A stretch of DNA of 42,515 nt. It comes from Comamonadaceae bacterium. GTDB taxonomy: Bacteria; Pseudomonadota; Gammaproteobacteria; Burkholderiales; Burkholderiaceae_C. Positions 6,852-39,366 of the stretch are shown here, in pieces (position 1 is the stretch's first letter; every line of letters begins with the position of its first letter). The translations under genes and the position numbers were made by a program. The stretch spans positions 1 to 42,515 of the forward strand of contig CANKXC010000001.1 of NCBI GenBank assembly GCA_947487355.1, given 5' to 3'. The notes beneath the pieces are model-generated. The model was not told the origin of the DNA. It worked only from the letters and a program-made list of their open reading frames with translations, and searched no databases.

Positions 6852-6872
6852 ATTTTATGACTGGACAGTTTA
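6852..6872 (-). promoter_or_regulatory. Putative operator abutting a -10 element (TAAACTGTCCAGTCA-TAAAAT) upstream of the gpx operon
   Basis: ACTG-N2-CAGT dyad followed directly by TAAAAT; 17/21 identical to 39346-39366. Confidence 0.55.
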
Positions 6873-6920
6873 CTTCTAATTTCTCAGCTTGTCACGTGCT
6901 GATTTTGCATCGCCTTTGGT

Positions 6921-9650
6921 CTAAAAAACGGCTCTCCAAAGTGCTAGGATGGCTTGCTTCTCGGGCTCCAAAACCGGCTGATTGACTTGTGTTGGCTCTT
7001 CATTCAGCCTGGCTTTGTGTTGCACACGACGCAATTCGCGATATGCAGAAGCCGCCGACAGACCCACACCGCTTGGCAACAAACCCACCGCTTCTGCCCG
7101 ATGCAACAAGGCAATATTGCCCACGTTGTCTAGCAAAGTTGGGTGGGCACTGGCATACATCAAGACGATAAATTGAACAGCAAACTCAGCGTCTACCATG
7201 CCACCTGAGCTGTGCTTCACATCAAACAAACCCGCTTTGATGGGGTGTGCTGCAAGCACCTTTTTCCGCATACCGACAATTTCATTTTTCAACAAGGCCA
7301 CATCGCGGGGCGCGCTGATGACCGCCCGCCGAACCTCATCAAAACGCTGACGCATGTGCTCGTCGCCCATTACAAAACGCGCCCGCGTCATGGCCTGATG
7401 CTCCCACGTCCATGCTGTATTGCTACCCCGTTGTTGTTGATAGTCGGCGTATGCACTGAAAGTGGTTACCAACAAACCTGAGCTGCCATTGGGCCTGAGG
7501 GCGGTGTCAATTTCAAACAAATCGCCTTCGGCGGTTTTAACTGTGAACCAGTTAATCAGCTTGCGGACAAAGCCCGCATACACCTCTTGTGCACGTTCAT
7601 CGGGGTCTTCAAAGACAAACACAATGTCCAAGTCGCTGCCATAGCCCAACTCTTTGCCGCCCAGTTTGCCGTAGGCAATGATGGCAAATTGAGGGACATC
7701 GCGGTGCCTATTTTTTAAGCAAGACCAACACCACTTGGCTGTTACTTTAAGAATGACGTCCGCCATGGCGCTTAAATCATCGGCCACTTGCTCAACCGTT
7801 AAGTTGCCCTCGACGTCGCGGGCCAAGGTCCGAAAAACTTCGGCATGGTGGGCACGGCGTAGCAAGTTCAACAGAGCTTCCTCGTCGTCTTCGCAGGTTC
7901 GCTTGAGTGCCTCACGCCGGGCCTCTAAGTCGGCCTCAAAGTCGGCCGCCACAAAGCGCAGCCGCAACACATCGCCATGGGCCAACTCGTCAATGACACC
8001 GGGGTGCTGAACCAAATAACGAGCGGGCCACTTGGCGGCACCCAACAAACGGAGCAAGCGCTCGTGAACTGCTGGCCGCTCTAACATCATGGCCAAATAG
8101 CTCTCGCGGCGCATCAAGGGCTCCATCCAATCGGCCATCCTGACCACCGCAATGGGCTCAACCTTGCCTTCTTTGAGCCACTGCGCTGTTCGCTGAAGCA
8201 AGCGCATCAGACGGGTTCGGGCTTCATCGCGCAAACCTTTGACCCTAGGACTTTCTTGCCAATGCGCCAAGCGTTCGCGGGCTTCGCCCTGAAACAAGTC
8301 CAGAACGGCCTCTAACTCTGGTAATTCACCGCCATTGGATTTTTGACAGCCTTTGCAATGCTGATCGCCACCTAACAGGATGTCAAATTCATGCGCAACG
8401 ATCTCTCGATGCGCATCTAAGTCGGTCAATAAATCACAGCTATCCCCATAGCCCATGGTGTGGGCAATCCAATTCAAATCGTGATCTTGAGTCGGCAAGA
8501 CATGGGTTTGCTGATCGTCCAAGTACTGAATTCGATGCTCGACTTTTCTTAAAAAAACATAGGCCTTGGCCAGGCTTTCAGCCGTCTCTGGCGGCATGAG
8601 TCCCGCTTTGGTCAAGCGTTTTAAGGCGTCAAGGGTGGGGCGTGTTCTTAGCTCTGGAAATTGACCACCGCGCACCACTTGAAGCAATTGGACGGTAAAT
8701 TCAATTTCACGAATACCCCCGCGTGAGAGCTTCACATCGTTGGCACGCTCTGGATGGCCGGCACTGCGTTTGGCCGCATGATCTCGAATTTGCTGGTGCA
8801 AAGTTCGCAAAGACTCAAACACGTTGTAGTCTAGGTAGCGCCTGAATACAAAGGGTAAGACCACCGAGCGCAGGGCCATGGCGGACCCATTTTGAATGGC
8901 GGCCTTTGGCGCAATGACTCGGCTTTTCATCCAAGCAAAACGCTCCCACTCTCGCCCTTGGACCAACAAATATTCTTCCAAGGCCCCCAAAGAGACCACA
9001 CTGGGCCCCGAATTGCCGTTGGGCCGAAGGGCTAAATCAATGCGAAAGACAAATCCGTGCTCGGTCGTGTCGCCTACCAAGCTGTAAATGGCCTTCACCG
9101 CGCGCGCAAAATATTCATGGACAGAGATGCGGTGAAGCCCCTCTGCATTGCCAGCCGTTTCACCGTCCTCATCGAAGACATAAATCAAATCAATGTCGCT
9201 AGACACATTCAGCTCTCGGGCGCCCAACTTGCCCATGCCAATGACCCAAAATTGAGCGCGTTGGCCTGCAGGCGTCAGCGGCTCGCCGTGGCGGGCATCC
9301 AGGGTTTCGAAGGCGCTTTGGCACGCTTTATCGAGCGCGAATTCTGCCAATTGGGTAACGCAAAGCGTGACGGTTTCTAGGGCTGCGTCTTGTTCACAGT
9401 CGAGCTTGATCAGCCGATGCATCGTCCATTGACGCAGAACTCGCAAAGCCGCACCCACCTCAAATTGGGCGCGCAGCGTGGTGTAGGCTTGCTCGAGCAC
9501 TTCACGCGTTGGGGTTGCCGGAGGAAGCGATGCAAAGACGTCGGCATAGCGCCGCTCTAGCCTTTGAAAAAAGCGGGAGCCCTCCGAAAGAGGCTTAGGC
9601 AGCCTTGAATCAGTGCGAATACCCGTCTCAAAGGGGTCTATGGCGGTCAT
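6921..9650 (-). CDS. glnE: Bifunctional glutamine synthetase adenylyltransferase/deadenylase
   Basis: Two nucleotidyltransferase domains: GMGKLGARELNVSSDIDL and YGKLGGKELGYGSDLD; DLALRPNG, GREWER, WTWEHQA, GGMVDAEF. Confidence 0.96.
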   Translation of the reverse strand: MTAIDPFETGIRTDSRLPKPLSEGSRFFQRLERRYADVFASLPPATPTREVLEQAYTTLRAQFEVGAALRVLRQWTMHRLIKLDCEQDAALETVTLCVTQLAEFALDKACQSAFETLDARHGEPLTPAGQRAQFWVIGMGKLGARELNVSSDIDLIYVFDEDGETAGNAEGLHRISVHEYFARAVKAIYSLVGDTTEHGFVFRIDLALRPNGNSGPSVVSLGALEEYLLVQGREWERFAWMKSRVIAPKAAIQNGSAMALRSVVLPFVFRRYLDYNVFESLRTLHQQIRDHAAKRSAGHPERANDVKLSRGGIREIEFTVQLLQVVRGGQFPELRTRPTLDALKRLTKAGLMPPETAESLAKAYVFLRKVEHRIQYLDDQQTHVLPTQDHDLNWIAHTMGYGDSCDLLTDLDAHREIVAHEFDILLGGDQHCKGCQKSNGGELPELEAVLDLFQGEARERLAHWQESPRVKGLRDEARTRLMRLLQRTAQWLKEGKVEPIAVVRMADWMEPLMRRESYLAMMLERPAVHERLLRLLGAAKWPARYLVQHPGVIDELAHGDVLRLRFVAADFEADLEARREALKRTCEDDEEALLNLLRRAHHAEVFRTLARDVEGNLTVEQVADDLSAMADVILKVTAKWCWSCLKNRHRDVPQFAIIAYGKLGGKELGYGSDLDIVFVFEDPDERAQEVYAGFVRKLINWFTVKTAEGDLFEIDTALRPNGSSGLLVTTFSAYADYQQQRGSNTAWTWEHQAMTRARFVMGDEHMRQRFDEVRRAVISAPRDVALLKNEIVGMRKKVLAAHPIKAGLFDVKHSSGGMVDAEFAVQFIVLMYASAHPTLLDNVGNIALLHRAEAVGLLPSGVGLSAASAYRELRRVQHKARLNEEPTQVNQPVLEPEKQAILALWRAVF

Positions 9651-9670
9651 AATTCCCTTCCTGAGTCAAT

Positions 9671-12600
9671 ATGCCCCAAACCCTTGTTCGAATGTTGAAA
9701 ATTTCTTCTTGGCCTCGCCTGATCGATGCAGGTTTTCGCCTGTTCGCATGGGGTCTTTTGACACTGGGCGTGGTTATGGGGATGGCTTGGTCGGCACTGC
9801 ATTTTTTGATTGTGCCGCGAATTGAAAATTTTCGCCCTCAGCTAGAAAATTTGGCCAGTCAAACCCTTGGGGTTCCGGTTCAAATGGGCCAATTGGTCGC
9901 CCTCTCCTCAGGGTGGATGCCCACATTTGAAATTCACAATCTGACACTGTTAGACCCTGAAGGACGCAGGGCATTGACCCTGCCCAAAATCACTTTTGCC
10001 ATCAGCGTCAGGTCGGTTCTCAATTTTGGCGTCGAGCAGTTGGTCATTGAAGCGCCCAGCCTTGACATTCGCAGAACCGCCGAAGGCGAATGGCGCATTG
10101 CAGGTCTGGCGCTCAAAAAAGACGGCGCCGTCGATTCGGCGGCCGCCGATTGGGTTTTTTCTCAGAAAGAAATCGTCATTCAACGTGGCACGGTGGTTTG
10201 GACCGACGATTACAAAAGCACCAACCTTGATAGACCGTCACTCCAGTTGAGCGATGTTTCTTGGGTATTGCGCAACTCGGCCTGGCACCATCAATGGCGC
10301 TTGGATGCCACGCCACCAGCTGGATGGGGCGATCGCTTTGTACTCATGGGCGACATGCGGCGCGGGTTACTGTCCACTCACCCCGGTCGGATTAAAGATT
10401 GGACTGGCCAAGTTCATGTGCAGTTTCCAGATGTTGAATTGGCGCAACTGGGCCCACATTTGCCGTGGAAGGTCAATGTCACTAAGGGCAAGGGTGCGCT
10501 GCGCATGTGGGCCGACCTTCAATCTGGCAGCCTGAAACAGGCAACGGCCGATGTGGTATTAGAAAACGCAAGCGCCCAACTCAATCCAGAACTTCAAGCG
10601 CTGACCTTCAAAAACATTGCAGGTCGCTTGGCTGTCAAATCTGTTCCAAATGGGTTCGACTTTTCAACCGAGGCTTTAAGTTTTGACACAGCAGACGGAC
10701 TTCATTGGCCGGGCGGCAATGTCAATTTGACCTACACAGAAAATGACAATGGGACGTTAGCGCAAGGCAAATTTCATGGCGACAAATTAGACCTGCTGGC
10801 ACTCAGAAACATTGCCATGCAGCTGCCGCTTCCCCAAGACTCACTTCAAGTTTTGCAAGCGCACAAAGTCATGGGAACCGTGAATACCTTGCACATTGAG
10901 TGGTCTGAGCAAAATACAGCTGAAGGCAAAAGCTACAAAATCGGCAATGCCAACGGCAACATCGAAAAGTTAACATTTGAGGGCGGCAAAGTAGGCGCAT
11001 CCAATGAGAGTTGGCCTAGCATCGAAAATGCCAATGTCATCTTTGACATGAACGCAGATGGCGGCCAAATCAAAGCCAACATCGAGCGTGGCGCCCTCAG
11101 CTTTCCACAAATTTTTGAAGATCCCCGTATTTCGCTGGACAAATTACAAGCGTCCATCAAATGGGTCAAGCAAAAGGGTCAAGTCACCGTGCCCGATTGG
11201 CAACTGAGCCTTAGCAACGCCGATGTTTTGGGGTCATGGCAAGGCAGTTGGAAACCCAGCGCCGAAGCAAAGAGTTTGGGCATCCTCGATTTGCAGGGCA
11301 GCATTGTTCGCGGCAATGCGAATCAGATTTACAAGTATTTACCTTTGGGCATTCCACAAAGTGTGCGCCATTACGTGCGCGATGCCGTTGTTTCAGGCAC
11401 GGTTCAAAATGTGGCCGTCAAAATCAAAGGTGATTTGTACAAGCTGCCTTTTGCCAACCCCAAAGAAGGTGAGTTTCGTTTTGCGGGAAAGGTCAATGAC
11501 GTTCAATATGCATACGTTCCTTCAGGCGGCGCAACTGGCATTACCGCTGCAAAACAAGCGCAGGCCGAGCCCAGCTGGCCCGTCATGAACAACGTCACTG
11601 GCGACATTGTTTTTGATCGACTGAACTTTAAGGTCAACAACGCAAGCGGCAAGTGGGGCAGTACGCCCTTCACGCAAATCAAAGCCGAAATTCCCAACTT
11701 GAACAGCAACCTGCTTGTGAATGTTCAAGGCGAATCCAAATCCAGCGCCAAACAGTTGTTGAGCGATTTACGGCTATCGCCAGTGGACAGCATGTTGGAC
11801 GGCGTATTAACCCAGGCCAGCATCACCGGCAATGTCGCCTCACGAATCAAGCTCAGTATTCCTTTGGCATCCATCGACAAAACGACGCTTCAAGGTACCG
11901 TCAATTTGTCGGGCAACGATGTTCGTATTTTGAACACTTTGCCCGTTTTCGAAAAAGCCCAAGGGGCCATCACATTCACTGAAAGTGGCTTTGGTCTGGC
12001 GGGAATCAGCGCGCAGTTTTTGGGCGGTCCCATCAAGTTCGATGGGGGCAGCCGAAAGCTCCCTGCAAAAAGTTTAGAAGCCAACCCATTCATTCGTGTT
12101 CAAGGCCAAGTCTCTGCCAACGGTTTGAAACAGGCGCAAGAAATTCCGCTGCTCAGTTTGTTAGGGCAACAAGCCAGTGGTTCAACCAACTACACCGCAA
12201 GCTTTGGCATCAAAGGGGGTCAGCCAGAGTTGAACATTCAATCTCAACTGCAGGGGCTGGCTTTGAATCTGCCGTCACCTTTGAACAAGCGTACCGATGA
12301 AATGGTTGCCCTTCGCTATGACAATGCCATTCAATCACTGAGCGCTGCGCCTGGCAATAAAGCGGTTCGGGACGTTTTGCAATTCAGTTGGGGTCGCACA
12401 TTCTCAGCAAGCTACAACCGCGACGTCAGTGGCGCAGAGCCCAAGGTTTTGAATGGGCGCTGGTGGGTGGGTGATGTTGTCGCGCAAGGCTCTACCGGTG
12501 CCGCAGAGACCGGCGTCATTGCCACCGTCAATCTGCCATCGCTCTCTGTTGACGATTGGATGCAAGTCGTTGCGCCTACCAAAAGCAACGCCACAGAAAG

Positions 12601-13747
12601 TGCAACACAAAACGCAATTTCATCTGCATCACAAGCGTATTTGCCGAACCGAATGAATTTGAAAAGCAATGAACTTTTGGTGCAAGGGCGAACGCTAAGA
12701 AGCGTCCTTCTTAATGCTTCGCGGGATGGCTTTGTATGGCGAACGCAATTGGACGCCAAAGAAATGAATGGCTATTTGGAGTACCGGCAGCCAAGCCCAC
12801 AAAACACGGCTCGAATTTATGCCCGCTTAAGCAGACTGAGCCTACAACCCACAGCAGATCAAACCGTTGAGTCTTTGTTGGAGGACTCCCCCGTTTCCAT
12901 CCCCGCGCTTGACATCGTGGTGGAAGAACTCGAATTACGCGGCAAAAAATTAGGCCGCGTTGAAATTGATGCCGTCAATACGGAAATCACTACACCCAGG
13001 TCCAACACGGGCCGCGAATGGCGCTTGAACAAACTCAATGTTACTGTGCCCGAAGCTAGCTTCAAAGCCAGTGGCAAATGGGTCACATCGCGCGAAGGCA
13101 CTCAGAAGGCCAGTACCGATATCAATTTCAAATTGGACATATCTGACGCCGGTGAATTGCTTAACCGCCTAGGCACCAAAGACGCCTTAAGAGGCGGAGG
13201 TGGCAAATTAGAAGGTCAGGTCAATTGGCAGGGCTCGCCCTTGACGCTTCATTACCCCAGCCTCACGGGCCGCTTCAATGTCAACATTGGACGTGGTCAG
13301 TTTTTACAGGCAGAGCCTGGCGTTGCCAAACTTCTGGGCGTCTTAAGTTTGCAAGCACTGCCGCGCCGCTTGCTGCTCGATTTCAGAGATGTTTTCAGTG
13401 CTGGGTTTGCATTCGATTCAATTCGCGGCGATGTCACCATTCAACAGGGCATTGCCAGCACCCAAAACTTGCAAATGAAAGGGGTCAACGCCGTTGTTCA
13501 AATGGAGGGAACGTCTGACATCGCGCGTGAAACCCAAAATTTGCGCGTCCTCATTTTGCCGGAAGTTGATCCAGGCACCGCCGCTTTGTTGGCGGGCTTG
13601 GCGCTCAATCCCGCCATTGGCCTGAGCACCTTCATTGCGCAACTGGTGCTGAAACAGCCACTTTTGCGTGTCAATACACAAGAGTTCATGATCGATGGCA
13701 CTTGGGCCGATCCCAAGGTCACCAAGCTAAGCGGCAGCGCACCTTAA
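9671..13747 (+). CDS. yhdP: YhdP family AsmA-like phospholipid transport bridge protein
   Basis: 1358 aa, single N-terminal TM helix, beta-rich body, C-terminal KLLGVLSLQALPRRLLLDFRDVF and I.GTWADP; divergent from glnE as usual in Betaproteobacteria. Confidence 0.9.
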   Translation: MPQTLVRMLKISSWPRLIDAGFRLFAWGLLTLGVVMGMAWSALHFLIVPRIENFRPQLENLASQTLGVPVQMGQLVALSSGWMPTFEIHNLTLLDPEGRRALTLPKITFAISVRSVLNFGVEQLVIEAPSLDIRRTAEGEWRIAGLALKKDGAVDSAAADWVFSQKEIVIQRGTVVWTDDYKSTNLDRPSLQLSDVSWVLRNSAWHHQWRLDATPPAGWGDRFVLMGDMRRGLLSTHPGRIKDWTGQVHVQFPDVELAQLGPHLPWKVNVTKGKGALRMWADLQSGSLKQATADVVLENASAQLNPELQALTFKNIAGRLAVKSVPNGFDFSTEALSFDTADGLHWPGGNVNLTYTENDNGTLAQGKFHGDKLDLLALRNIAMQLPLPQDSLQVLQAHKVMGTVNTLHIEWSEQNTAEGKSYKIGNANGNIEKLTFEGGKVGASNESWPSIENANVIFDMNADGGQIKANIERGALSFPQIFEDPRISLDKLQASIKWVKQKGQVTVPDWQLSLSNADVLGSWQGSWKPSAEAKSLGILDLQGSIVRGNANQIYKYLPLGIPQSVRHYVRDAVVSGTVQNVAVKIKGDLYKLPFANPKEGEFRFAGKVNDVQYAYVPSGGATGITAAKQAQAEPSWPVMNNVTGDIVFDRLNFKVNNASGKWGSTPFTQIKAEIPNLNSNLLVNVQGESKSSAKQLLSDLRLSPVDSMLDGVLTQASITGNVASRIKLSIPLASIDKTTLQGTVNLSGNDVRILNTLPVFEKAQGAITFTESGFGLAGISAQFLGGPIKFDGGSRKLPAKSLEANPFIRVQGQVSANGLKQAQEIPLLSLLGQQASGSTNYTASFGIKGGQPELNIQSQLQGLALNLPSPLNKRTDEMVALRYDNAIQSLSAAPGNKAVRDVLQFSWGRTFSASYNRDVSGAEPKVLNGRWWVGDVVAQGSTGAAETGVIATVNLPSLSVDDWMQVVAPTKSNATESATQNAISSASQAYLPNRMNLKSNELLVQGRTLRSVLLNASRDGFVWRTQLDAKEMNGYLEYRQPSPQNTARIYARLSRLSLQPTADQTVESLLEDSPVSIPALDIVVEELELRGKKLGRVEIDAVNTEITTPRSNTGREWRLNKLNVTVPEASFKASGKWVTSREGTQKASTDINFKLDISDAGELLNRLGTKDALRGGGGKLEGQVNWQGSPLTLHYPSLTGRFNVNIGRGQFLQAEPGVAKLLGVLSLQALPRRLLLDFRDVFSAGFAFDSIRGDVTIQQGIASTQNLQMKGVNAVVQMEGTSDIARETQNLRVLILPEVDPGTAALLAGLALNPAIGLSTFIAQLVLKQPLLRVNTQEFMIDGTWADPKVTKLSGSAP

Positions 13748-13768
13748 GGCCCTCACAAAGGTACTGGC

Positions 13769-15832
13769 ATGAAGCGTCCAAGCCAAGCTATAGAACCTTT
13801 TTTGAATGCGCTGTGGCCGTTTTTTAAATCTGCGACGCGCTCCTTCACCGACCGCCGCATCTCTTTGTGGTTTGCATTGGTTGCATTGGTGGTGGCCTTG
13901 TTGGTCACATTGGTTTGGCTGGCTGGCCGTTATGAGGCCAGTCAATACCAATCCGAGTTGGAAAGCGATACCGTCAATGCGGCCGGAGATATTCGGCGCA
14001 GTTTGACAAGTCACGCACTGACTTTGCAAAGTTTGAATGCGCAATCACTGAGTGCCAAATCTTGGCGTGCTGAAGCAGATCGCTTGATGGCTCAAAACCG
14101 CGAATGGTTGCGCGTTGAAAAACGAGACCTTCAAGGCTTGGTGAGTGAGTTTGTCATCTCCCCCTATCTTGAGCCTCTGTTTGATGGCAACACGCGGCTT
14201 AGCGAGCAGTCTGAAATTATTCAGACATGCATTCGGGCCAAACGTTTGAATGGCCCCGCATATTCTCGAACCTATTTTGTTCCGCAAGCCAGTGGGCTTG
14301 GTTTTGAAGTCATGGAAATGTGCTTGCCCTTGATTGAACACGGCGCAAGCATTGGGTACACCGTCATCACTTACAGCCTTCGAGACATCTTGGCTTCACA
14401 GCTCTCAGAAACGTATGGCCGCAGAAACGAAATTTCATTTGTCGAGCCAGACGGAACGCGATTGGCAGTCCACGGTACACCGCCCAGAAGCAAGCGACTT
14501 TTTACGGCCACTCAGTTGATGGACTTGCCGGGCAACACCCTGATGCTCCGAATGGATGGGCGTCGCGTCGGGCCTGATCTTTTTCCGAATGTCTTGCCCG
14601 CGCTCGTCACCGCCATGTCCATTGCCTTAGTTTCTGTGTTGGTTTTATTGGTCAAAGACTCCCGTCGACGTTTAAAAGCAGAGCAAGACTTGGCCGATGC
14701 TTTGGCATTTAGAAAAGCCATGGAAGATTCGTTGGTCACGGGTTTGCGTGCGCGTGATTTGCAAGGACGAATTACGTATGTGAACCCTGCGTTTTGTCAG
14801 ATGGTTGGTTTCAACGCAGAACAATTATTGGGCGCTGCCGCGCCCATGCCGTATTGGCCAACCGAAATGGTGGGCGAGTATCAACGCCGCCAAGCTGTCC
14901 GCTTGGCAGGCAATGCGCCACCTCGAGAAGGCTTTGAATCTGTTTTTGTCAGACAAGATGGCTCGCGCTTTCCGGTGCTTATTTTTGAAGCGCCGCTGAT
15001 CAATGCAGTTGGCAAACAAACCGGATGGATGAGCGCATTCTTAGACATCAGTGAACAGCGACGCGTCGAAGAAATGTCTCGCACCAGTCAAGAACGGCTT
15101 CAAGCCACCGCCAGATTGGCGACAGTTGGTGAAATGGCCTCATTGTTAAGCCACGAGTTAAATCAACCTCTGGCCGCTATTTCAAGCTACGCCACCGGTT
15201 CCTTGAATTTGATTGGTCAACATCAAAACTTGCTGGGTCAATCTGACCCTGCTGAGTTGAACGATTTACAGATGGCCCTCGAGAGAATTGCAGCGCAGGC
15301 GAGCAGAGCGGGCAAGGTGATTAACAGTGTTCATGACTTTGTGCGACGCAGGGATCAAGCGCGCGAAGCCGTGAGTCCTCGCGCCATTGTTGATGCTGTG
15401 CTTCCGCTGGTTCAATTGCAAGCCCGCAAACTGCATGTTCGATTGGCGGTCCAAATTGATGACCACCTTCGCAATGTCCTTTGTGATCGAACCATGGTTG
15501 AGCAAGTTCTGTTGAATCTGGCGCGCAACGGCATGCAAGCGATGGACCATCCCTCTTGTTTGAATCGCGTTTTAACCATCCACGTTAAACGCGCGGCTTC
15601 CAATCACGCTCAAGGTTGGATTGAGTTTGATGTGATTGATGAGGGCATTGGTATTTCTGAAGAAGTGGGTCAGCAGTTGTTCACGCCGTTTTTCACAACC
15701 AAATCGGAGGGCATGGGTCTGGGTTTGAGTTTGTGCCGAACCGTGGTGGAACAACACGGTGGTCATCTAGAGTTTGAGCCGTTTTTACCCACCGGCACTT
15801 TGTTTCGTTTTACGCTTCCTACCCAAGCCTAA
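13769..15832 (+). CDS. Membrane-bound PAS sensor histidine kinase (DctS/FixL-like)
   Basis: Two TMs with a periplasmic domain, PAS (ITYVNPAFC..PMPYWP), H-box SHELNQPL, N-box QVLLNLARNG, DEGIG, FFTTK..GMGLGL. Confidence 0.92.
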   Translation: MKRPSQAIEPFLNALWPFFKSATRSFTDRRISLWFALVALVVALLVTLVWLAGRYEASQYQSELESDTVNAAGDIRRSLTSHALTLQSLNAQSLSAKSWRAEADRLMAQNREWLRVEKRDLQGLVSEFVISPYLEPLFDGNTRLSEQSEIIQTCIRAKRLNGPAYSRTYFVPQASGLGFEVMEMCLPLIEHGASIGYTVITYSLRDILASQLSETYGRRNEISFVEPDGTRLAVHGTPPRSKRLFTATQLMDLPGNTLMLRMDGRRVGPDLFPNVLPALVTAMSIALVSVLVLLVKDSRRRLKAEQDLADALAFRKAMEDSLVTGLRARDLQGRITYVNPAFCQMVGFNAEQLLGAAAPMPYWPTEMVGEYQRRQAVRLAGNAPPREGFESVFVRQDGSRFPVLIFEAPLINAVGKQTGWMSAFLDISEQRRVEEMSRTSQERLQATARLATVGEMASLLSHELNQPLAAISSYATGSLNLIGQHQNLLGQSDPAELNDLQMALERIAAQASRAGKVINSVHDFVRRRDQAREAVSPRAIVDAVLPLVQLQARKLHVRLAVQIDDHLRNVLCDRTMVEQVLLNLARNGMQAMDHPSCLNRVLTIHVKRAASNHAQGWIEFDVIDEGIGISEEVGQQLFTPFFTTKSEGMGLGLSLCRTVVEQHGGHLEFEPFLPTGTLFRFTLPTQA

Positions 15833-15850
15833 GGCATTTTAGAATTCAGC

Positions 15851-16495: not shown

Positions 16496-16514
16496 GCCCT
16501 TCGCTGGCAAACGC

Positions 16515-17832: not shown

Positions 17833-17880
17833 GCCCAGTCGTTCTACACTTCGCCTTAATGCTTAAGAAAGTGGGTCTCC

Positions 17881-26192: not shown

Positions 26193-26228
26193 GCAAGTCA
26201 GTCAGGGGCCTGCTGTGGCGCAATGTTT

Positions 26229-27014: not shown

Positions 27015-27176
27015 GGCTTTTCCTGGTCGAAGGTCCAAAGTGCTAGCTTAGCGCGAGCACGCATTGACCGTGGGTCGCGCACGGCACACTCGATGCAGAT
27101 AAAATCAAACCCCTTAGGCCACAGGCCTCCTGCGGCGCGGGCAGCGCCGGCCTTTTGGTCATGGACTGGTGAATAC

Positions 27177-29860: not shown

Positions 29861-29915
29861 GCAAGTTGGAGTCAGCTTTCGCCCATTACACTTGGGCTAC
29901 ATAAGAAAGCCTCGC

Positions 29916-30530: not shown

Positions 30531-30561
30531 GCGCATCAACCGAAAATTAATCGAGAAACAA

Positions 30562-31332: not shown

Positions 31333-31350
31333 AGCGCCCATCAAATCAAC

Positions 31351-31905
31351 ATGCAGCCAAATCAAGTCCTTATTTTGCCTGGCTGGCAAGGGTGTGGGCC
31401 TCTTCATTGGCAAAGCAAATGGGTCCAAAATTATGCGTATCAGTTGGTAGAGCAGCACGATTGGATGCGCCCTTTGCGAGGTGATTGGTTGAGCAGATTA
31501 GACGAAGTGGTGTCTGATGTGTGCGGTCCCATTTATTTGGTGGCCCACAGTCTGGGCTGCATTCAAGTGGCGGCTTGGGCCAACATATCAAAACAAACGC
31601 ATCGAGTGAAAGCGGCTTTGTTGGTTGCACCTGGCGATGTTGAGGCACCAGCTTTCAAAGATGTGCTCAGCAGTTGGCGCCCCATTTGCCTCAAGCCGCT
31701 GCCGTTTAAATCTATTTTGCTGGGCAGCCAAAATGACCCGCACTGCACCCTAGAGCGGGCACAATTTTTTGCCAAATTGTGGGGTTCAGATTGGATCGAC
31801 ATGGGACCCAAAGGGCATCTGAACGCAGACTCTCAGTTAGGAGACTGGCCAGAAGGACACGATTTTTTGAATCAATTAATGAAGGTAGAAGAACATGGTC
31901 ACTAA
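31351..31905 (+). CDS. RBBP9/YdeN family alpha/beta hydrolase
   Basis: LPGW..G..HWQ, VAHSLGC nucleophile elbow, S.NDP, GHLN. Confidence 0.9.
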   Translation: MQPNQVLILPGWQGCGPLHWQSKWVQNYAYQLVEQHDWMRPLRGDWLSRLDEVVSDVCGPIYLVAHSLGCIQVAAWANISKQTHRVKAALLVAPGDVEAPAFKDVLSSWRPICLKPLPFKSILLGSQNDPHCTLERAQFFAKLWGSDWIDMGPKGHLNADSQLGDWPEGHDFLNQLMKVEEHGH

Positions 31906-32821
31906 AAAACCAAAAGGACTGGGTCGTGGTTTGGAGGCTTTGCTAGGCCCCAAAGTTCAAGATGAGGCCAGCTCGCCCCAAGCGGTTGAAGCCGCCGCAA
32001 ATCGAACACCTTCAGTTTTGAGCTTGGGCGATTTGGTGCCAGGCATGTACCAACCGCGGACACGCATGGACGAGGGGGCTTTGTATGAATTGGCCGAGTC
32101 CATCAAGGCCCAGGGCATCATGCAACCCATCTTGGTTCGCAAGTTGAGCGATGGCCCCAATGCCGGCAAATATGAAATCATTGCCGGTGAGCGTCGCTTC
32201 CGCGCGTCGCGCTTAGCGGGCTTGAACGAGGTGCCCGTGTTGGTTCGGGACGTGCCCAATGAGGCCGCTGCAGCCATGGCACTCATCGAAAATATTCAAC
32301 GCGAAGACTTGAACCCATTGGAAGAGGCCCAGGGTTTGCAACGCCTAATCAAGGAGTTTGGACTCACTCACGAAACGGCAGCACAGGCCGTTGGCCGGTC
32401 TCGAAGTGCCGCCAGCAATTTGCTTCGCTTGTTGAATTTGGCGGACCCCGTGCAAACCATGCTCATGGCGGGTGACATCGACATGGGTCATGCCCGTGCA
32501 CTTTTGGGGCTCGACAGGGCCGCCCAAATTACGGCCGCCAATCAGATCAGTGCCAAAAAAATGTCGGTTCGTGAGGCCGAAAGCTTGGTGAAAAAACTCA
32601 GCGCAGAGTTTTCATTGGTTCAACAAAAGCCCAAAAAAGAGAAGTCGCGAGACATCAAACGTGTTGAAGAAGAACTGTCAGACTTGCTGATGGCCGAGGT
32701 GGAAGTGCGCATTAAAAAGCGCGTCAAGCGCCACGGAAGATTCGAAGAGATGGGCGAGCTGTCCATCCAATTTGGGTCTTTGGATGAACTCAATGGTTTC
32801 ATTGAGCGGCTTCGTGGCTGA
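31895..32821 (+). CDS. parB: Chromosome partitioning protein ParB/Spo0J
   Basis: KGLGRGLEALL, YQPR, GIMQPILVR, IIAGERRFRA, IENIQREDLNPLEEA, HTH. Confidence 0.97.
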   Translation: MVTKKPKGLGRGLEALLGPKVQDEASSPQAVEAAANRTPSVLSLGDLVPGMYQPRTRMDEGALYELAESIKAQGIMQPILVRKLSDGPNAGKYEIIAGERRFRASRLAGLNEVPVLVRDVPNEAAAAMALIENIQREDLNPLEEAQGLQRLIKEFGLTHETAAQAVGRSRSAASNLLRLLNLADPVQTMLMAGDIDMGHARALLGLDRAAQITAANQISAKKMSVREAESLVKKLSAEFSLVQQKPKKEKSRDIKRVEEELSDLLMAEVEVRIKKRVKRHGRFEEMGELSIQFGSLDELNGFIERLRG

Positions 32822-32835
32822 CTGTCAAACAACGT

Positions 32836-34260
32836 TCAATGAAAGATTTTTCCGGGGTTCATGATGTTGTGTGGGTCCAGTGCCTGCTTGATGGTCTTCA
32901 TCATGCTGACCGCGCCTGCACCAGCCTCGGTTACTAAGAAGTCCATTTTGTGCAAACCAATGCCGTGCTCGCCAGTGCAGGTGCCGCCCAAGCGCAGTGC
33001 TCTGCTCACTAACTTGTGATTGAGGTCTTCGGCCACTTCTCTTTCGTGAGGAATCTCTGGATTGATGAGGTAGCCAAAGTGGAAATTGCCATCGCCCACA
33101 TGACCCACTAAAAAGTAAGGCAAGCCACTGGCGTCGGTTTCGGTGATGGAGTCGAGCAGACAATCGGCCAACTTGCTGATGGGGACGCAGGTGTCTGTGC
33201 TGATGGCGCGGCAGCCTGGCTTGCTTTGAAGCGCAGCAAAATAAGCGTTGTGGCGAGCCGTCCAAAGGCGAGTGCGCTCTTCGGGTGTGGTGGCCCATTC
33301 GAAGGCGTTGCCGCCATGGTCGCTGGCAAGTTCTTGTACCGTCTCGGCTTGCTCTTTAACGCCGGCGGGCGAGCCATGAAACTCCATCAACAGCATGGGC
33401 TCTTCACGCAGCCCCAATTTGGCATACGCATTCACCATGCGCACGGTGTTGTGGTCAATGAGCTCAACGCGGGCGATGGGAACACCCAACTGAATGATTT
33501 GAATGACCGTTTGAACGGCCGCCTCAATGCTGGGGAAGGAGCAGATGGCTGCCGAAATAGCTTCTGGCAACGGGTACAAGCGAACCGTAACTTCAGTGAT
33601 GACACCCAAGGTGCCTTCGCTTCCGACAAACAAGCGCGTGAGGTCGTAGCCAGCGCTTGATTTTTTGGCGCGCGTGCCCGTTCGAATGACTTCGCCCGAT
33701 GCAGTGACAACTTCAAGTGCCAGCACATTTTCGCGCATGGTGCCGTATCGAACTGCATTGGTGCCACTGGCACGGGTTGCGCTCATGCCGCCCAGTGTGG
33801 CATCGGCGCCTGGATCGATGGGGAAAAATAAACCTGTAGATTTAATTTCTTCGTTCAACTGTTTGCGAGTGACGCCCGGCTGAACGGTGACGGTCAAGTC
33901 TTCGGCGTTGATCGACAACACCTTGTTCATGCGTGTGAGGTCAATGCTGATGCCGCCTTGAACCGCCAACAAATGGCCTTCTAAGGAAGAGCCTACGCCA
34001 AAGGGGATGACCGGAACCTTGTATTCACTTGCCAACTTGACGGCGTCAGAAACATCTTGTGTGCACTCTGCAAAAACCACCGCCGAAGGTGGCGGCACAG
34101 GTGCAAAGGCGGACTCATCGCGGCCATGTTGCTCACGAATGACCAAAGCGGTTGAGCAGTTGTCGCCAAAGCGCTTCTTCAGTTCGTCGATGAAAGCCTG
34201 CGGCACGGGGCGGGCTTGTACCGCTGGGGCCAAGTGGGCTGCTTGAGTAGGTGCATTCAT
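32836..34260 (-). CDS. FAD-linked oxidase, D-lactate dehydrogenase (cytochrome)/GlcD-like
   Basis: PFGVGSSLEG, FPIDPGADA, SGTNAVRYG, GSEGTLG, GHVGDGNFH, TGEHGIG, MNPGK. Confidence 0.9.
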   Translation of the reverse strand: MNAPTQAAHLAPAVQARPVPQAFIDELKKRFGDNCSTALVIREQHGRDESAFAPVPPPSAVVFAECTQDVSDAVKLASEYKVPVIPFGVGSSLEGHLLAVQGGISIDLTRMNKVLSINAEDLTVTVQPGVTRKQLNEEIKSTGLFFPIDPGADATLGGMSATRASGTNAVRYGTMRENVLALEVVTASGEVIRTGTRAKKSSAGYDLTRLFVGSEGTLGVITEVTVRLYPLPEAISAAICSFPSIEAAVQTVIQIIQLGVPIARVELIDHNTVRMVNAYAKLGLREEPMLLMEFHGSPAGVKEQAETVQELASDHGGNAFEWATTPEERTRLWTARHNAYFAALQSKPGCRAISTDTCVPISKLADCLLDSITETDASGLPYFLVGHVGDGNFHFGYLINPEIPHEREVAEDLNHKLVSRALRLGGTCTGEHGIGLHKMDFLVTEAGAGAVSMMKTIKQALDPHNIMNPGKIFH

Positions 34261-34418
34261 GGTGGCGCTCCGATGTCAGGGTGCAGTGCAACAGCGCTGA
34301 AGAGTCAGCCAGTCGCGTTGGTGAATCAAGCTTGACGAAATCTTGTCAAACTCGGTCAAAATGAGAGTTTACGCGCAGACGCTCATTTTTGCAGTCGTCT
34401 CAGCACAGGGGAAACACC

Positions 34419-34973
34419 ATGGGTAATCGGCTCACACAAATTGCAACCCGCACGGGCGACGAAGGAACGACTGGTTTAGGCAACAACCAGCGTGTGTCCA
34501 AAAACAGCTTGCGCGTCCATGCCATGGGCGATGTCGACGAGTTGAACTCGCACATTGGCTTGTTGCTGTGTGAGGCCATGCCAGACGATGTCCGCACGCT
34601 TTTGGTCGAGGTTCAACATCAACTGTTTAACTTGGGTGGAGAACTGTCCATACCTGGCTTTGAGTTGTTGAAGGCAGAAGCGGTGGCGGTGTTGGACCAA
34701 GCCCTTGAAAAGTACAACGCACAGCTGCCCAAGCTCGAAGAATTTATTTTGCCTGCAGGCAATCGCGCTGCGTCTCAAGCGCACATTTGCCGCACAGTGG
34801 CCAGGCGTGCAGAGCGCGCCACAGTGGCGCTTGGCAATGAAGAGGCGTTGAATGATGCGCCGCGCCAGTATTTAAATCGGCTTTCTGACTTGATGTTTGT
34901 TCTGTCGCGCGTACTCAACCGAATGGACGGGGGTACGGATGTTTATTGGCAAAGTGAGCGCATGAAAAAATGA
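34419..34973 (+). CDS. pduO: Cob(I)alamin adenosyltransferase, PduO type
   Basis: TRTGD.GTTGL, GDVDELNS.IG, FILPAG, RTVARRAER, YLNRLSD. Confidence 0.93.
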   Translation: MGNRLTQIATRTGDEGTTGLGNNQRVSKNSLRVHAMGDVDELNSHIGLLLCEAMPDDVRTLLVEVQHQLFNLGGELSIPGFELLKAEAVAVLDQALEKYNAQLPKLEEFILPAGNRAASQAHICRTVARRAERATVALGNEEALNDAPRQYLNRLSDLMFVLSRVLNRMDGGTDVYWQSERMKK

Positions 34974-37138
34974 CAATACCGCCCAACGAAACTCTCATTG
35001 CCGCACCCACAGCGCATGCTGATTACGCGCCGCAAATTCGGCTTTATCAAAACTGGCTAAAGCAAAATCGCGGCCTCTCTTTTGAGCGCTATGAAGATTT
35101 GTGGCAATGGTCAATTTCGGACTTGGACGCGTTTTGGCAGAGCATTTGGGATTACTTTGATTTGCAATCGCCAACACCACACACGACTGTTTTGGCCAAA
35201 AATGCCATGCCCGGTGCGGTTTGGTTTCCTGGTGCCAAGGTCAATTACGCAGGTCAAGTATTGCGACACGTCGATGCGGCACATGCGGCAGGCTTTCCAG
35301 CCCTCATTGCACAAAATGAATTGGGCGTGCGACAAGAAATTTCATGGCCAGAACTGAGGCGACGAATTGCTTCCATGGCCCTGCACCTTCAAGCGCAAGG
35401 CTTGCAACCCGGCGATCGTGTGGCGGCTTATTTGCCAAACATTCCTGAGGCCATCATTGCCTTTTTGGCCACCATCAGCGTGGGCGGTGTGTGGAGCATT
35501 TGCGCCCCCGACATGGGCACCTTGGCCGTACTCGACAGGTTTAAACAAATTGAACCCAAGGTTTTGATTGCCTGTGATGGCGTGATTTATGGCGGCAAAA
35601 ACTACGATCGCATGAGTGTGGTGCAAGAGTTGAAAGACGCCTTGCCTTCGGTGCAACATGTCATCGTTCACGACAATTTAGGGGTTGCAGATTTGGCCAA
35701 CAACGAAGTGGCGGCAGCCATTCGTTTTTCACAAACCACTTTGCTGCAGGGGCCCTTGGTCGATCAATTTGCGCCCATGGACTTGCCCTTTGATCATCCT
35801 TTGTGGGTGGTTTACTCAAGCGGCACCACAGGCTTGCCCAAGCCTATTGTGCATGGCCACGGCGGCACCTTGATTGTGGCCATGGCTCTGAAAATTTTGC
35901 ACAACGATGTGGGCTGCAGTTATCAGCCCAACAGCTGGGGTGAGCGATTCCATTGGTACAGCTCAACCGGTTGGGTGATGTGGAATGCGCAAGTGGGCGG
36001 CCTCCTCAACGGTACCACCTGCGTCATTTACGACGGCAACCCTGGCGGCAGCAAAGGCCAGCCCGATTGGACAACGCTGTGGCGTTTTGCCGCAGACAAT
36101 CAGGTGACATTTTTTGGCGCTGGCGCAGCATTTTTTGCCAACTGTCAAAAGGCGGGCATTGAGCTCCTTGAGTGTGGTGATCTTTCAAAGGTTCGCGCAT
36201 TGGGCACCACAGGCTCACCCCTTTCGCCCGATACCCAAAAATGGGGCAATGCACAGTTTAAAAAAATCCAAAGTCAGTACAGCCAGTCAGACCATCTTCA
36301 CCGCGAAACGGATGGTGACATTTGGTGGTGCAACATTTCTGGTGGCACCGATTTTTGTGGCGCCTTCATTGGAGGCAATAGAGAACTGCCACAAGAACCC
36401 GGCGTTATGCAATGTCGTTTGTTGGGGTGCGCTGTAGAGGCTTGGAGCGAAGCGGGCGAGCCCGTGCATGGTGAGGTGGGCGAACTGGTTTGTGTGCAGC
36501 CCATTCCCTCCATGCCCTTGTATTTTTGGAACGATGCCAACAACGTGCGCTACTTGGCCAGCTACTTTGAAATGTACCCAGCGGGCCACGGCCGCAAGCC
36601 AGGCGGCGGTGATGCCGATGCATCGTTTGGGGGTGTTTGGCGACATGGCGATTGGTTGCGCATTGGTGCGGCGGGCCAAGGCAAAGAAGGGGGCGAAGGT
36701 TGCGTCATTTTTGGCCGAAGCGATGCCACCATCAATCGGCATGGTTTGCGCATGGGCACCAGCGAACTTTACAGCGCGGTTGAGGCTTTGCCCGAAGTGA
36801 TGGACAGCATGGTGGTGGACCTTGAATACTTAGGCCGCGAAAGTTACATGCCTTTGTTTGTGGTGCTCATGCCGGGTTTGAATTTAACGGAAGACGTTAA
36901 AAACAAATTAAACACCGCCATCAAAACGGCACTCAGTCCGCGCTTTGTGCCCAATGAAATTTTTCAGGTTACCGAAATTCCCAGAACCTTGTCGGGCAAG
37001 AAACAAGAGCTGCCCATTAAGAAATTGATGTTGGGACAAGCACTCGAAAAAGTGGTGAACAAAGATGCCATGGCCAATCCTGCGTGTTTGGATTGGTACG
37101 TTGATTTGGCCAAAAAACATTTGGCCAAATCAAGCTAG
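34970..37138 (+). CDS. Acetoacetate--CoA ligase
   Basis: WFPGAKVNYA, YSSGTTGLPK.IVHGHGG, GWVMWN, SGGTD, WRHGDW, GRSDATINR.G.RMGTSE, SGKK.E. Confidence 0.92.
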   Translation: MTIPPNETLIAAPTAHADYAPQIRLYQNWLKQNRGLSFERYEDLWQWSISDLDAFWQSIWDYFDLQSPTPHTTVLAKNAMPGAVWFPGAKVNYAGQVLRHVDAAHAAGFPALIAQNELGVRQEISWPELRRRIASMALHLQAQGLQPGDRVAAYLPNIPEAIIAFLATISVGGVWSICAPDMGTLAVLDRFKQIEPKVLIACDGVIYGGKNYDRMSVVQELKDALPSVQHVIVHDNLGVADLANNEVAAAIRFSQTTLLQGPLVDQFAPMDLPFDHPLWVVYSSGTTGLPKPIVHGHGGTLIVAMALKILHNDVGCSYQPNSWGERFHWYSSTGWVMWNAQVGGLLNGTTCVIYDGNPGGSKGQPDWTTLWRFAADNQVTFFGAGAAFFANCQKAGIELLECGDLSKVRALGTTGSPLSPDTQKWGNAQFKKIQSQYSQSDHLHRETDGDIWWCNISGGTDFCGAFIGGNRELPQEPGVMQCRLLGCAVEAWSEAGEPVHGEVGELVCVQPIPSMPLYFWNDANNVRYLASYFEMYPAGHGRKPGGGDADASFGGVWRHGDWLRIGAAGQGKEGGEGCVIFGRSDATINRHGLRMGTSELYSAVEALPEVMDSMVVDLEYLGRESYMPLFVVLMPGLNLTEDVKNKLNTAIKTALSPRFVPNEIFQVTEIPRTLSGKKQELPIKKLMLGQALEKVVNKDAMANPACLDWYVDLAKKHLAKSS

Positions 37139-37147
37139 ACAGGTCAA

Positions 37148-38131
37148 TTAGTTCTTGTGCAATTCGGCGTTTAAGCTGCCCCAGCTTTCTGTGCGGGGAA
37201 TGGCTTGAACGGCACCAGACTGTGAATCGCGGCGGAACAAAATACCGTTGCGACCTGACAGTTCGCGGGCTTTGACCACACTGCCATCGGGCATCTTGAC
37301 GCGCGTGCCGCCGGTGACATAGCAGCCTGCCTCAACCACACAATCGTCGCCCAAAGAAATGCCAATGCCCGAGTTGGCACCCAGCAAGCAACGCTTGCCA
37401 ATAGAAATAACTTCTTTGCCGCCACCCGACAGCGTGCCCATGATGGAGGCGCCACCGCCCACATCACTTTGATCGTCGACCAACACACCCGCACTGATGC
37501 GGCCTTCCACCATGGAGGTGCCCAGCGTGCCTGCATTGAAGTTGCAGAAGCCTTCATGCATGACGGTGGTGCCCGGTGCCAAATGCGCACCCAATCGAAC
37601 GCGGTCGACGTTGGCAATGCGCACGCCAGAAGGTACGACGTAGTCGGTCATGTAAGGGAACTTGTCGATGGCTTTGACGTCAAACACAACGCGTGCTGCA
37701 CGCGCACGCAAGCGCGCGGCTTCCAATTGGTCCAAGGGGCAAGGGCCCATGGAGGTCCATGCCAAATTGGTCAACATGCCAAAGATGCCGGCCAAATTGG
37801 CTTGATGAGGTTTGATCAAACAATGGCTGAGCAAGTGAAGGCGCAAAAACACATCGTGCGTGTCTTTGGCAGGTTCAGACAAGTTGGCAATGCTGGTTTT
37901 AACAGCGACCACATTGACACCACGCAATTCGCAAGGGCCCAATGCCTTGACAAAAGCTTCGCCCAAATGAGTTTTGACATCGGCCTCACTCAACACCTGG
38001 CTACCGGCTTCTTGAATGCCTTCGGCCAATTGGGGCGCAGGATACCAAGTATCTAAGATGACGCCGTCTTTGGACAGGGTTGCCAAGCCATAGGCTACAG
38101 CGCTACTTTGAATCATGGGAGGGGTTTGCAT
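37148..38131 (-). CDS. dapD: Tetrahydrodipicolinate N-succinyltransferase, long (actinobacterial-like) type
   Basis: GLAT...G..LDTWYPAP, LRLHLLSH, DKFP.M.DYVVP.GVRI, GTTVMHEGF.NFNAGT, EGRISAGV, GTLSGGG, LLGANSG. Start 38131 or 38116. Confidence 0.9.
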   Translation of the reverse strand: MQTPPMIQSSAVAYGLATLSKDGVILDTWYPAPQLAEGIQEAGSQVLSEADVKTHLGEAFVKALGPCELRGVNVVAVKTSIANLSEPAKDTHDVFLRLHLLSHCLIKPHQANLAGIFGMLTNLAWTSMGPCPLDQLEAARLRARAARVVFDVKAIDKFPYMTDYVVPSGVRIANVDRVRLGAHLAPGTTVMHEGFCNFNAGTLGTSMVEGRISAGVLVDDQSDVGGGASIMGTLSGGGKEVISIGKRCLLGANSGIGISLGDDCVVEAGCYVTGGTRVKMPDGSVVKARELSGRNGILFRRDSQSGAVQAIPRTESWGSLNAELHKN

Positions 38132-38189
38132 GGTGATCAGTGTAAAAATCAAAAAAAGAGATTATCGGGCTTTGTCGTGGGCTTTGCTT

Positions 38190-39290
38190 TTATTGCAATT
38201 CCGAAAGATCAATGCTTTGGCGCTTTAGCCATTCGCCTTGCGTATTTTGAAAGCCCAACTGAATTTGTTTTTGCGGCCAATTGAAGTCAATCAAGGCAAA
38301 GTGATTTTGCGTGACCAATTGACCGAGGCGGTTAGGGCCGGCCTCATTGGCATTGGCCCATGCGTGCGTCATGCCACTGGAGGTGAGCTCATACAAGGGG
38401 TAGTTGGTGTTGGTTTTGCTTTTGTAGACAGCACCAATGTGTCGATCACCGGACAAGAAAATAACCCCTTTGGCCTGGGTTTTTTGCACGAGCTGTCGCA
38501 TCTTTTCTAACTCATGTGGAAAGTTGCCCCACGATTCCCAGCCGTGTCCATCGGCCACCACCTGTATGCCAGAAACAATCAGTCGAACATCTGCCGCTTG
38601 TTTCAATTGCATCTCAAGCCACTGCCATTGGGCCGCCCCGAGCATGGTTTTTTTGGGGTCTGTGTCGGGCACATAGCGCTCTTTGCCGGGTGCGTTTCGG
38701 TCATCGGTCACTTTGGGTTCAGACTTGAACCAGCGGGTGTCTAACAAAATAATTTGCACGCGTTGACCCAGGGGGCCAATTTGAAAAGCTTGATAAAGAC
38801 CTTCTCTTTGTCGACGCGTGTCGTTGGCGGGCAATTCCCAAAATGCCATGAAGGCGTCTTTGGCGACTTGCTTGTGTGCAAAGCCTGCTCCACCATCGTT
38901 TTGACCCATGTCGTGATCGTCCCAAATGGCCATGTGGGGAACTTCACGACGCAACTGCGCGAATCCTTCTTGCGCCGCTTGCGTGGCGTAGGCTTTTTGT
39001 AATTGATCCAAATGCCAAGGCGGCCTGCTGGCATAAACGTTGTCACCGCCAAAAATGAACAGGTCTGGTTTTGTGGCCAGAATCGCACGCCAAATGGGTT
39101 GGGGCTTGTTTTGATCGATGCAAGAGCCAAATGCAATGCGTTGTATTTTTTGCGGCAATTCTGGCCCTGCAGTTGCAGACGCAGTTACCGATGTTTTGTC
39201 CTGTGCGTGTGCCAAGTTGGATACCCAGCTGCTCATCCCGCCCACCAAGGCGCTCAGGCTGAATGTTTTTAGCAAATGGCGACGTTTCAT
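38190..39290 (-). CDS. phoD: PhoD-like alkaline phosphatase/phosphodiesterase, Tat-exported
   Basis: KRRHLL twin-arginine signal; AFGSC, GDNVY, WDDHD, LDTR, LG..QW.WL, SGDRH; SD GGAG before the ATG at 39290. Confidence 0.88.
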   Translation of the reverse strand: MKRRHLLKTFSLSALVGGMSSWVSNLAHAQDKTSVTASATAGPELPQKIQRIAFGSCIDQNKPQPIWRAILATKPDLFIFGGDNVYASRPPWHLDQLQKAYATQAAQEGFAQLRREVPHMAIWDDHDMGQNDGGAGFAHKQVAKDAFMAFWELPANDTRRQREGLYQAFQIGPLGQRVQIILLDTRWFKSEPKVTDDRNAPGKERYVPDTDPKKTMLGAAQWQWLEMQLKQAADVRLIVSGIQVVADGHGWESWGNFPHELEKMRQLVQKTQAKGVIFLSGDRHIGAVYKSKTNTNYPLYELTSSGMTHAWANANEAGPNRLGQLVTQNHFALIDFNWPQKQIQLGFQNTQGEWLKRQSIDLSELQ

Positions 39291-39345
39291 GGCTGGCTCC
39301 GATGTGCGCCCAATGGGATGAACTGATAACCTAGACGTGCTGGAC

Positions 39346-39366
39346 ATTTTATGACCGATCAGTTCA
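39346..39366 (-). promoter_or_regulatory. Putative TetR operator abutting a -10 element (TGAACTGATCGGTCA-TAAAAT) in the phoD/tetR divergent region
   Basis: 17/21 identical to 6852-6872; also overlaps the expected -35 region of the tetR promoter (TGcTAAAAT at 39382-39390). Confidence 0.55.

Follow-up and report, generated by a model that had tools for sequence, protein, structure and literature searches.

A candidate TetR-family regulon centred on a predicted furan-lipid operon in a relative of Limnohabitans

Does a TetR-family repressor encoded near one end of a 42,515-nucleotide stretch of Comamonadaceae DNA (contig CANKXC010000001.1, hereafter the window) control a lipid operon near the other? 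The question is raised by two intergenic 21-mers about 32 kb apart, at 6852-6872 and 39346-39366, which an initial annotation had read as copies of a single operator; their coordinates, their intergenic position and their identity at 17 of 21 positions are all confirmed. One sits in the 84 bp that separate glnE from gpx, the first gene of the co-directional lipid cluster, and the other between a phoD-like gene and the divergent tetR. From comparative analysis we consider it highly probable that the window's TetR binds paired palindromes at both places, repressing its own promoter together with a gpx-ufaD-ufaO-ufaM-like operon. The nearest named relatives of the window's genome (G000; a 1.66 Mb assembly, estimated to be 58% complete) are Limnohabitans, a common freshwater genus.

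A palindrome shared by tetR and a distant lipid operon

Taken alone, the 17/21 resemblance falls within chance: about 0.58 such pairs of 21-mers are predicted among the window's 11 intergenic regions, by an empirical rate from the 532 intergenic regions of the genome in which overlapping words are counted repeatedly. The exact pattern of the 17 common positions occurs at just these two places in the assembly, with one further place at two mismatches and three at three. The significance of the sites comes instead from their conservation and from their presence or absence across genomes. The TetR subfamily in question is sharply bounded, being carried by 53 of 300 other Burkholderiales genomes (the order-level set) at E <=1e-32, with none between 1e-32 and 1e-20, and by 85 of the 150 genera of the family-level set, in which each genus is represented by one genome. 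Unguided motif discovery in the upstream regions of 47 distant tetR orthologues (<63% identity) returned the palindrome TTGAACTGATCAGTTCAA, with a log-likelihood of 210.9 against 131.3 for the runner-up and a site at a posterior of at least 0.75 in 34 of the 47 regions; the matrix built from these distant sites ranks the window's tetR site 2nd of 1.66 million positions. The two loci also predict each other. With the window's own sites excluded (and loci L044 and L046 left out), a genus matrix made from tetR sites only places the gpx site 8th of 1,658,603 positions, and one made from gpx sites only places the tetR site 5th; with both, these two are the top intergenic matches, the higher-ranking ones lying within open reading frames (ORFs) or at the partner site. 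Scored over 1544 upstream rows of the assembly, a family matrix gives 19.0 bits at tetR and 15.9 bits at gpx, the best and second-best sites, and 11.7 bits for the next.

The main site test was made on family genomes in which tetR is not adjacent to the lipid operon (n=86; 60 with TetR and 26 without), using a matrix from Limnohabitans tetR sites only and a cut-off of >=10 bits within 1.5 kb upstream of the ufaD-like gene; G432 and G381, whose upstream DNA is too short, and five unlinked-TetR genomes were left out. Such a site precedes the ufaD-like gene in 45 of the 60 genomes with TetR versus 1 of the 26 without, the chance of a site per 1.5-kb stretch being 10.7%, and in 38 of the 45 loci the second-best site lies 19-21 bp from the best. 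The TetR-less genomes are scattered over a quick tree of 41 rows (59 other family genomes, represented by upstream DNA alone, were left out), with seven changes of which at least three are forced. Within the genus, the lowest scores at the orthologous gpx position (6.4 and 7.5 bits) belong to G022 and G004, in both of which no TetR orthologue was found. Where tetR is found no more than 2 kb from the ufaD-like gene, as in 20 of 53 TetR genomes at the order level and 12 of 85 at the family level (distances from tetR and from LitR to the operon were read by hand), it is usually divergent from the operon, and the dyads occupy the gap at the same 19-21 bp pitch. Furthermore, a ufaD-like gene is found in all 53 order-level and in 77 of the 85 family-level TetR genomes; its frequency is 131/300 in the order-level set overall and 28/65 among TetR-less family genera. 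Motif discovery, cross-prediction and the 45/60 versus 1/26 contrast together uphold the proposed link between tetR and the distant gpx operon, and the palindrome is very likely the operator of the window's TetR.

At gpx, the main dyad (6856-6873; minus strand GTAAACT-GTCC-AGTCATA) spans both the -10 and the putative transcription start of a predicted sigma-70 promoter on the minus strand (6867-6895; -35 GTGACA, 17-bp spacer, -10 TAAACT), the -10 serving at once as one arm of the palindrome. A consensus promoter scan picks this GTGACA/TAAACT pair (6895-6867) as its sole match. Among the 27 of 29 relatives' loci that have upstream DNA, the main dyad scores 10.9-17.0 bits at the orthologous position in 25, GTGACA is kept in 22 and TAAACT, 17 bp further, in 25, with the AGTCA arm conserved four bases past it. 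A second, weaker dyad (6836-6853) lies 20 bp downstream of the main one and ends at the gpx start codon; the G and T of its right arm are kept in 27/27 relatives. The initial annotation had placed the -10 at a TAAAAT fused to the dyad, which is wrong: TAAAAT occurs in 1 of the 27 relatives (CAAAAT in 13, CAAAAC in 7) versus 25 for the TAAACT inside the dyad, and the A-rich stretch reads as the spacer between the two dyads rather than as a -10. RNA contigs of the operon come from four of 16 RNA runs. In three they end at 6844-6856 and in the fourth they extend across the promoter; as contigs alone with no DNA control, they neither fix the start site nor rank genes.

In the phoD-tetR gap, the main dyad (39350-39367; TATGACC-GATC-AGTTCAA) overlaps the predicted -35 (39363-39368) of a predicted tetR promoter on the plus strand (39363-39390; extended -10 TG-n-TAAAAT), and the autoregulatory layout proposed for this copy therefore holds. 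With the extended -10 ending 6 bp short of the ATG, the tetR transcript is probably leaderless; a spacing of 6 or 7 bp recurs in 34 of 66 near orthologues, the other 32 being unmatched by the pattern used. A degenerate second dyad (39331-39348), 19 bp toward phoD, scores -2.4 bits in the window's genome, and a GT is found at its offset in 25/25 close relatives (L117, L118 and L121, three of 28 loci, were left out).

Variants of this arrangement were seen elsewhere. In the family test genomes the operator usually stands ~260-390 bp ahead of the ufaD-like gene, a distance suggestive of a long leader or of a small gene, missing from the annotation, that heads the operon. In G339 (L279:5838-6557) and G306 (L280:3490-4250), tetR is inserted within the operon in the opposite orientation, between the ufaD-like and DUF1365 genes, and a strong site precedes DUF1365. 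The operator arms become TACT-N4-AGTA in several distant families (L061, L062, L266-L277), with the second dyad often over the tetR start codon. Two non-orthologous phoD genes flank tetR according to lineage, one divergent, as in the window (38190-39290), and one co-directional (L012:2194-3600, L017, L128, L150).

The predicted operon and its proposed repressor

The gene run that follows the gpx site lies on the minus strand throughout. It opens with gpx itself (6243-6836), of the glutathione peroxidase family, whose N-terminus reads as signal-peptide-like, and continues with a flavin oxidoreductase that is UfaD-like by position and family (4940-6235; PF01593), a UfaO-like DUF1365 protein (4104-5024; PF07103; its true start is probably later than the ORF call) and an S-adenosylmethionine (SAM)-dependent fatty-acyl methyltransferase, either UfaM or a cyclopropane fatty acid (CFA) synthase (2884-4107; PF02353). 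Next come a chalcone-isomerase-like protein (2301-3035; PF16036), an RSP1089-like MFS/GPH-type transporter (967-2319), a DUF3833 protein (365-970) and an RSP1087-like short-chain dehydrogenase (3-368) truncated where the contig stops; in G006, a relative with a complete genome, a SnoaL-like gene comes after the dehydrogenase.

The order of flavoprotein, DUF1365 protein and SAM methyltransferase is that of ufaD-ufaO-ufaM and matches RPA2571-2570-2569 (PMC7380195; this and the other sources named by PMC number are cited for their accessible portions). The furan fatty acids of R. sphaeroides are made by ufaM, ufaD and ufaO, the R. palustris ufa genes are RPA2571-2569, and UfaO homologues carry DUF1365 (PMC7380195). 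Here the UfaD-, UfaO- and UfaM-like labels were set by protein family and gene order, not by comparison with characterised proteins, and CFA-type matches of the methyltransferase in NCBIfam are all below cut-off. The operon is predicted to make furan-type antioxidant membrane lipids.

The repressor gene (tetR, 39397-40065, plus strand; PF00440) encodes a helix-turn-helix (HTH) and a helical C-terminal domain, and the palindrome over its own promoter is conserved with the gene, as expected of an autoregulatory TetR. Its predicted structure is an all-helical TetR fold (pLDDT 87.6), and its Foldseek matches are all TetR-family. The recognition helix is near-invariant among orthologues, which fits a single shared operator. 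Three cysteines had been put forward as redox sensors, of which C187 alone, in the CDP motif (codon 39955-39957), proves invariant: it is kept in 75/75 non-redundant aligned rows and in 131/131 locus hits with redundant loci included, whereas C213 is kept in 33 of the 47 distant orthologues and C68 in one. Also invariant are W115, P126, L128 and P129 (P126-x-L-P129) and Y145.

Searches among known proteins gave little beyond the fold. Foldseek, solved-structure and protein-atlas searches returned generic TetR relatives and no closer kin: the solved-structure searches yielded no convincing match past the N-terminal part, with HTH similarity alone, and the Foldseek E-values are flat, the first rows including Bacillus FadR (TM 0.64, 17% identity). 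Homologue searches give automatic names only, many of them AefR, a label that looks like annotation transfer. Like AefR of Pseudomonas syringae (PDB 3cdl), the protein has a TetR fold and a similar HTH; unlike a full-length relative, it is significantly similar just over residues 20-74 in the single-sequence comparison and over profile positions 11-149 of 198, so that the CDP region is not covered. Full-text literature searches, which left out most subscription papers and RegPrecise, turned up no description of this TetR or its site, and the regulon is apparently undescribed.

Extent of the regulon and its relation to other regulators

The initial annotation had envisaged a broad photo-oxidative regulon. 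This is not borne out in the window's organism, where, of the 1544 upstream rows, the two with the window sites rank well ahead of all others and nothing else exceeds 11.7 bits. No site of at least 10 bits was found within 1.5 kb upstream of the matched domain at 14 photolyase/cryptochrome loci or five msrA loci, the photolyase check reaching ~600 bp before the gene, beyond which sites in operon leaders would escape it; the regulon here is therefore small. For peroxiredoxin, msrB and carotenoid genes, the genome-wide upstream scan of the 58% assembly gave no site above 11.7 bits, with no search dedicated to them. The gap before the etf genes scores 9.7 bits, no beta-oxidation gene rises above 11.7 bits in the same rows, and a second gpx, at C42, reaches 8.9 bits. 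Exact-pattern scans of five relatives found no further site common to several genomes, and the scan of neighbouring genes around tetR and the operon covered 68 of 137 listed ORFs and five others. Elsewhere, unlinked tetR flanks fasciclin genes in 8 of 31 loci, or gpx, with a dyad before them; in Limnohabitans G024 both fasciclin loci carry sites (16.3 and 11.7 bits), and the G051 fasciclin locus has none. This suggests that fasciclin genes join the regulon where they are present. In the window's organism the regulon looks like tetR, the gpx-ufa operon and perhaps phoD-dapD. As a separate observation, G018 has a near-perfect 16-bit dyad ~110 bp before iscR (L201:7677) that is absent at that place in G000.

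Many Burkholderiales have a LitR-like gene next to the operon. Light induces ufaM in Pseudomonas through class II LitR, and MerR-type LitR/CarH light regulators (class II PplR/PmlR in Pseudomonas, class III in Burkholderia) govern ufaM clusters in the light (PMC9758184). The TetR described here resembles them in its target and differs in belonging to another protein family with no B12-binding domain. The two regulators largely alternate at the operon: at the order level, LitR is found within 10 kb of it in 1 of 20 TetR-adjacent versus 28 of 33 TetR-unlinked genomes. Yet of the 60 unlinked TetR genomes in the family site test, 30 have both regulators; the operon site is present in 16 of these and in 29 of the 30 without LitR. 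The initial annotation had noted neither RpoE-ChrR nor a LitR-type regulator in the window, and our wider searches agree: with the query used, no LitR was found in the 58% complete G000, and 2 of 36 genus relatives were positive, one of which, the TetR-less G028, has LitR beside ufa; ChrR (TIGR02451) was above cut-off in 0 of 5 near-complete relatives, the window's own genome not being among those searched. On this comparative evidence, TetR appears to take the place of LitR or RpoE-ChrR in many genomes of Comamonadaceae type, Limnohabitans among them, while in others TetR and LitR would both act on the operon or TetR would keep just fasciclin or gpx genes. A ferritin-like desaturase/AurF-type gene accompanies both LitR and TetR versions of the cluster (L205:4703-5572, L271:4336-5202, L098:520-1380).

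In gene content, the operon is like the RpoE-ChrR (ECF11) singlet-oxygen regulon of R. sphaeroides, which comprises RSP1091-1087, cfaS/ufaM, phrA and RSP_1409 (PMC6852236, PMC7074977, PMC7380195), with the ufa genes and the fasciclin RSP_1409 among the RpoE targets (PMC7074977): flavoprotein, DUF1365 protein, methyltransferase, GPH transporter and short-chain dehydrogenase recur, as does fasciclin where present. It differs in being placed under a predicted repressor on a sigma-70 promoter rather than under a sigma/anti-sigma pair, and in that photolyase lacks a site. FadP is a further point of comparison, being likewise a TetR-family regulator of lipid metabolism that was reconstructed by footprinting in the same taxa, where it governs fatty-acid degradation in Comamonadaceae, Ralstonia and Burkholderia (PMC5343134). 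However, the FadP targets listed there are beta-oxidation and etf genes, and DUF1365, cfa and btuE have no occurrence in the FadP supplement, for the 32 of 43 FadP places covered (PMC5343134); it is by these target lists that the two regulators are set apart here.

Some features of the window and of another genome touch none of these subjects. An ORF of 164 aa (42019-42513, plus strand) matches nothing in Pfam or NCBIfam and is predicted to contain a hydrophobic stretch; RNA contigs cover it in all four runs, two of them beginning at 41954-41962 with adapter letters. A serine-hydrolase gene (PF06821; 31351-31905) lies between parA and parB of the gidA-gidB-parAB region. Finally, L199 (G035:C25) holds a ~6.7 kb direct tandem duplication that includes integrase-like genes and would be a mobile element or else an assembly repeat.

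Proposed mechanism, alternatives and meaning

By analogy with other TetR proteins, two dimers would occupy the paired dyads on one face of the DNA and keep RNA polymerase from the promoter; we infer the binding and this steric block, as we do the lipid product. A lipid-derived oxidant or electrophile (such as a lipid hydroperoxide, an enal or an oxidised furan lipid) would then enter the C-terminal pocket and modify Cys187, the invariant residue that closes helix 175-187, whereupon the dimers would let go, the peroxidase and the antioxidant lipid would be produced, and autoregulation would reset the switch. The chances of this release step being correct are about evenly balanced.

Several observations weigh against a shared operator. 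The distant-only matrix places the gpx site just 93rd of 1.66 million positions, and since the -10 doubles as an arm of the gpx dyad, part of the conservation of that dyad is promoter constraint. Fifteen of the 60 family TetR genomes have no operon site, and in 8 of 85 no ufaD-like gene passes the threshold applied. The low scores in the sister genomes G004 and G022 count as one event, and the TetR-less G004 retains a match of 12.2 bits at an offset of 4 bp; in G032 (71% complete), where no TetR was found, the site is present all the same. Beyond the family the tie to the operon is weak: in the order-level set, the site is present at 10 bits in 6 of 30 unlinked-TetR versus 2 of 38 TetR-less genomes (p 0.13), and with the distant matrix in 2 of 30 versus 0 of 38 (G206, G089 and G238, all unlinked, were left out, and 38 of 78 TetR-less genomes were scored). 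Moreover, the genomes are kin and not independent, so Fisher p-values for 45/60 versus 1/26 overstate the case. That two AT-rich promoter regions merely look alike is what the expected number of such 21-mer pairs in the window would allow, but cross-prediction, footprinting, the tandem spacing and the presence/absence contrast all contradict it, and we regard it as hardly credible. That another regulator binds the palindrome, and happens to control both tetR and the operon, draws on the incompleteness of the genome and on TetR binding being deduced from sequence; we hold it improbable, because the site tracks the presence of TetR, accompanies tetR into unrelated neighbourhoods and is matched by the near-invariant recognition helix that a fixed operator demands. 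Whether phoD is a target of the TetR is uncertain. The site in the gap might also repress the divergent phoD-like phosphatase gene (38190-39290, minus strand; probable start 39290) and the dapD that follows, through a TAAAAT -10 between the two dyads; ATTTTATGAC is indeed retained in 24 of 36 loci, which all belong to the close clade, and it is toward phoD that the second dyad lies. Against this, phoD faces the gap in 21 of 24 flank-keeping loci and is missing from the other three, where the housekeeping gene dapD faces the site directly; in the second clade of Limnohabitans the neighbour is another phoD paralogue (~22% identical), co-directional with tetR; a promoter scan of the gap found no -35 for phoD; a phosphatase suits neither pathway; and the same A-tract at gpx is an inter-dyad spacer. 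We therefore consider repression of phoD doubtful.

A closer competitor leaves the regulon as it is and changes the signal: the TetR would sense an acyl-CoA, an acyl-ACP or a pathway intermediate non-covalently, like FabR, DesT and Bacillus FadR, with Cys187 merely lining the pocket. An invariant cysteine can indeed be structural or pocket-lining without reacting, the targets are acyl-chain-modifying enzymes, W115, P126-x-L-P129 and Y145 suggest a fixed hydrophobic pocket, and Bacillus FadR stands among the first Foldseek rows, though with flat E-values. However, the regulon includes gpx and fasciclin, which are singlet-oxygen-response genes in Rhodobacter, and LitR, with which the TetR alternates at this operon, is a light regulator. 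Because the targets and the alternative regulators belong to the singlet-oxygen/light response, we prefer release by an oxidant or electrophile and consider acyl sensing a real but less probable alternative. Cysteine-based redox sensing has a precedent among TetR proteins in E. coli NemR. GbaA of S. aureus is another (PMC8693949); like both, the window's protein is a predicted autoregulated TetR with a conserved cysteine in its regulatory domain (C187) that would control oxidoreductases, and unlike GbaA it has that cysteine near the C-terminus rather than at positions 55 and 104, with no sequence link past the HTH among solved structures. We propose, quite tentatively, that the subfamily is a one-component sensor of a lipid-derived singlet-oxygen signal, in which an oxidised furan or unsaturated fatty-acid product would react with Cys187 and release the repressor, as a third, independent solution alongside RpoE-ChrR and LitR.

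TetR regulons are commonplace in themselves. A TetR regulon centred on a furan-lipid operon is nevertheless well supported by the comparative evidence as real, and as a new regulatory variant of a known stress module: where that module has been known under RpoE-ChrR and LitR, our results point to a third regulator, widespread in Betaproteobacteria, and the order-level alternation with LitR offers a clear example of one regulator replacing another. In furan-lipid mutants RpoE activation is poor, and the signal path from membrane oxidants to ChrR turnover is listed as open (PMC6852236). Limnohabitans would use the TetR at a distance from the operon, with a defined operator, a promoter overlap and one candidate sensor residue, and a single soluble repressor of the same genes would let the signal be sought by gel-shift assay. 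If Cys187 does sense a lipid-derived singlet-oxygen signal, this repressor would offer a simple handle on the messenger that triggers ChrR turnover.

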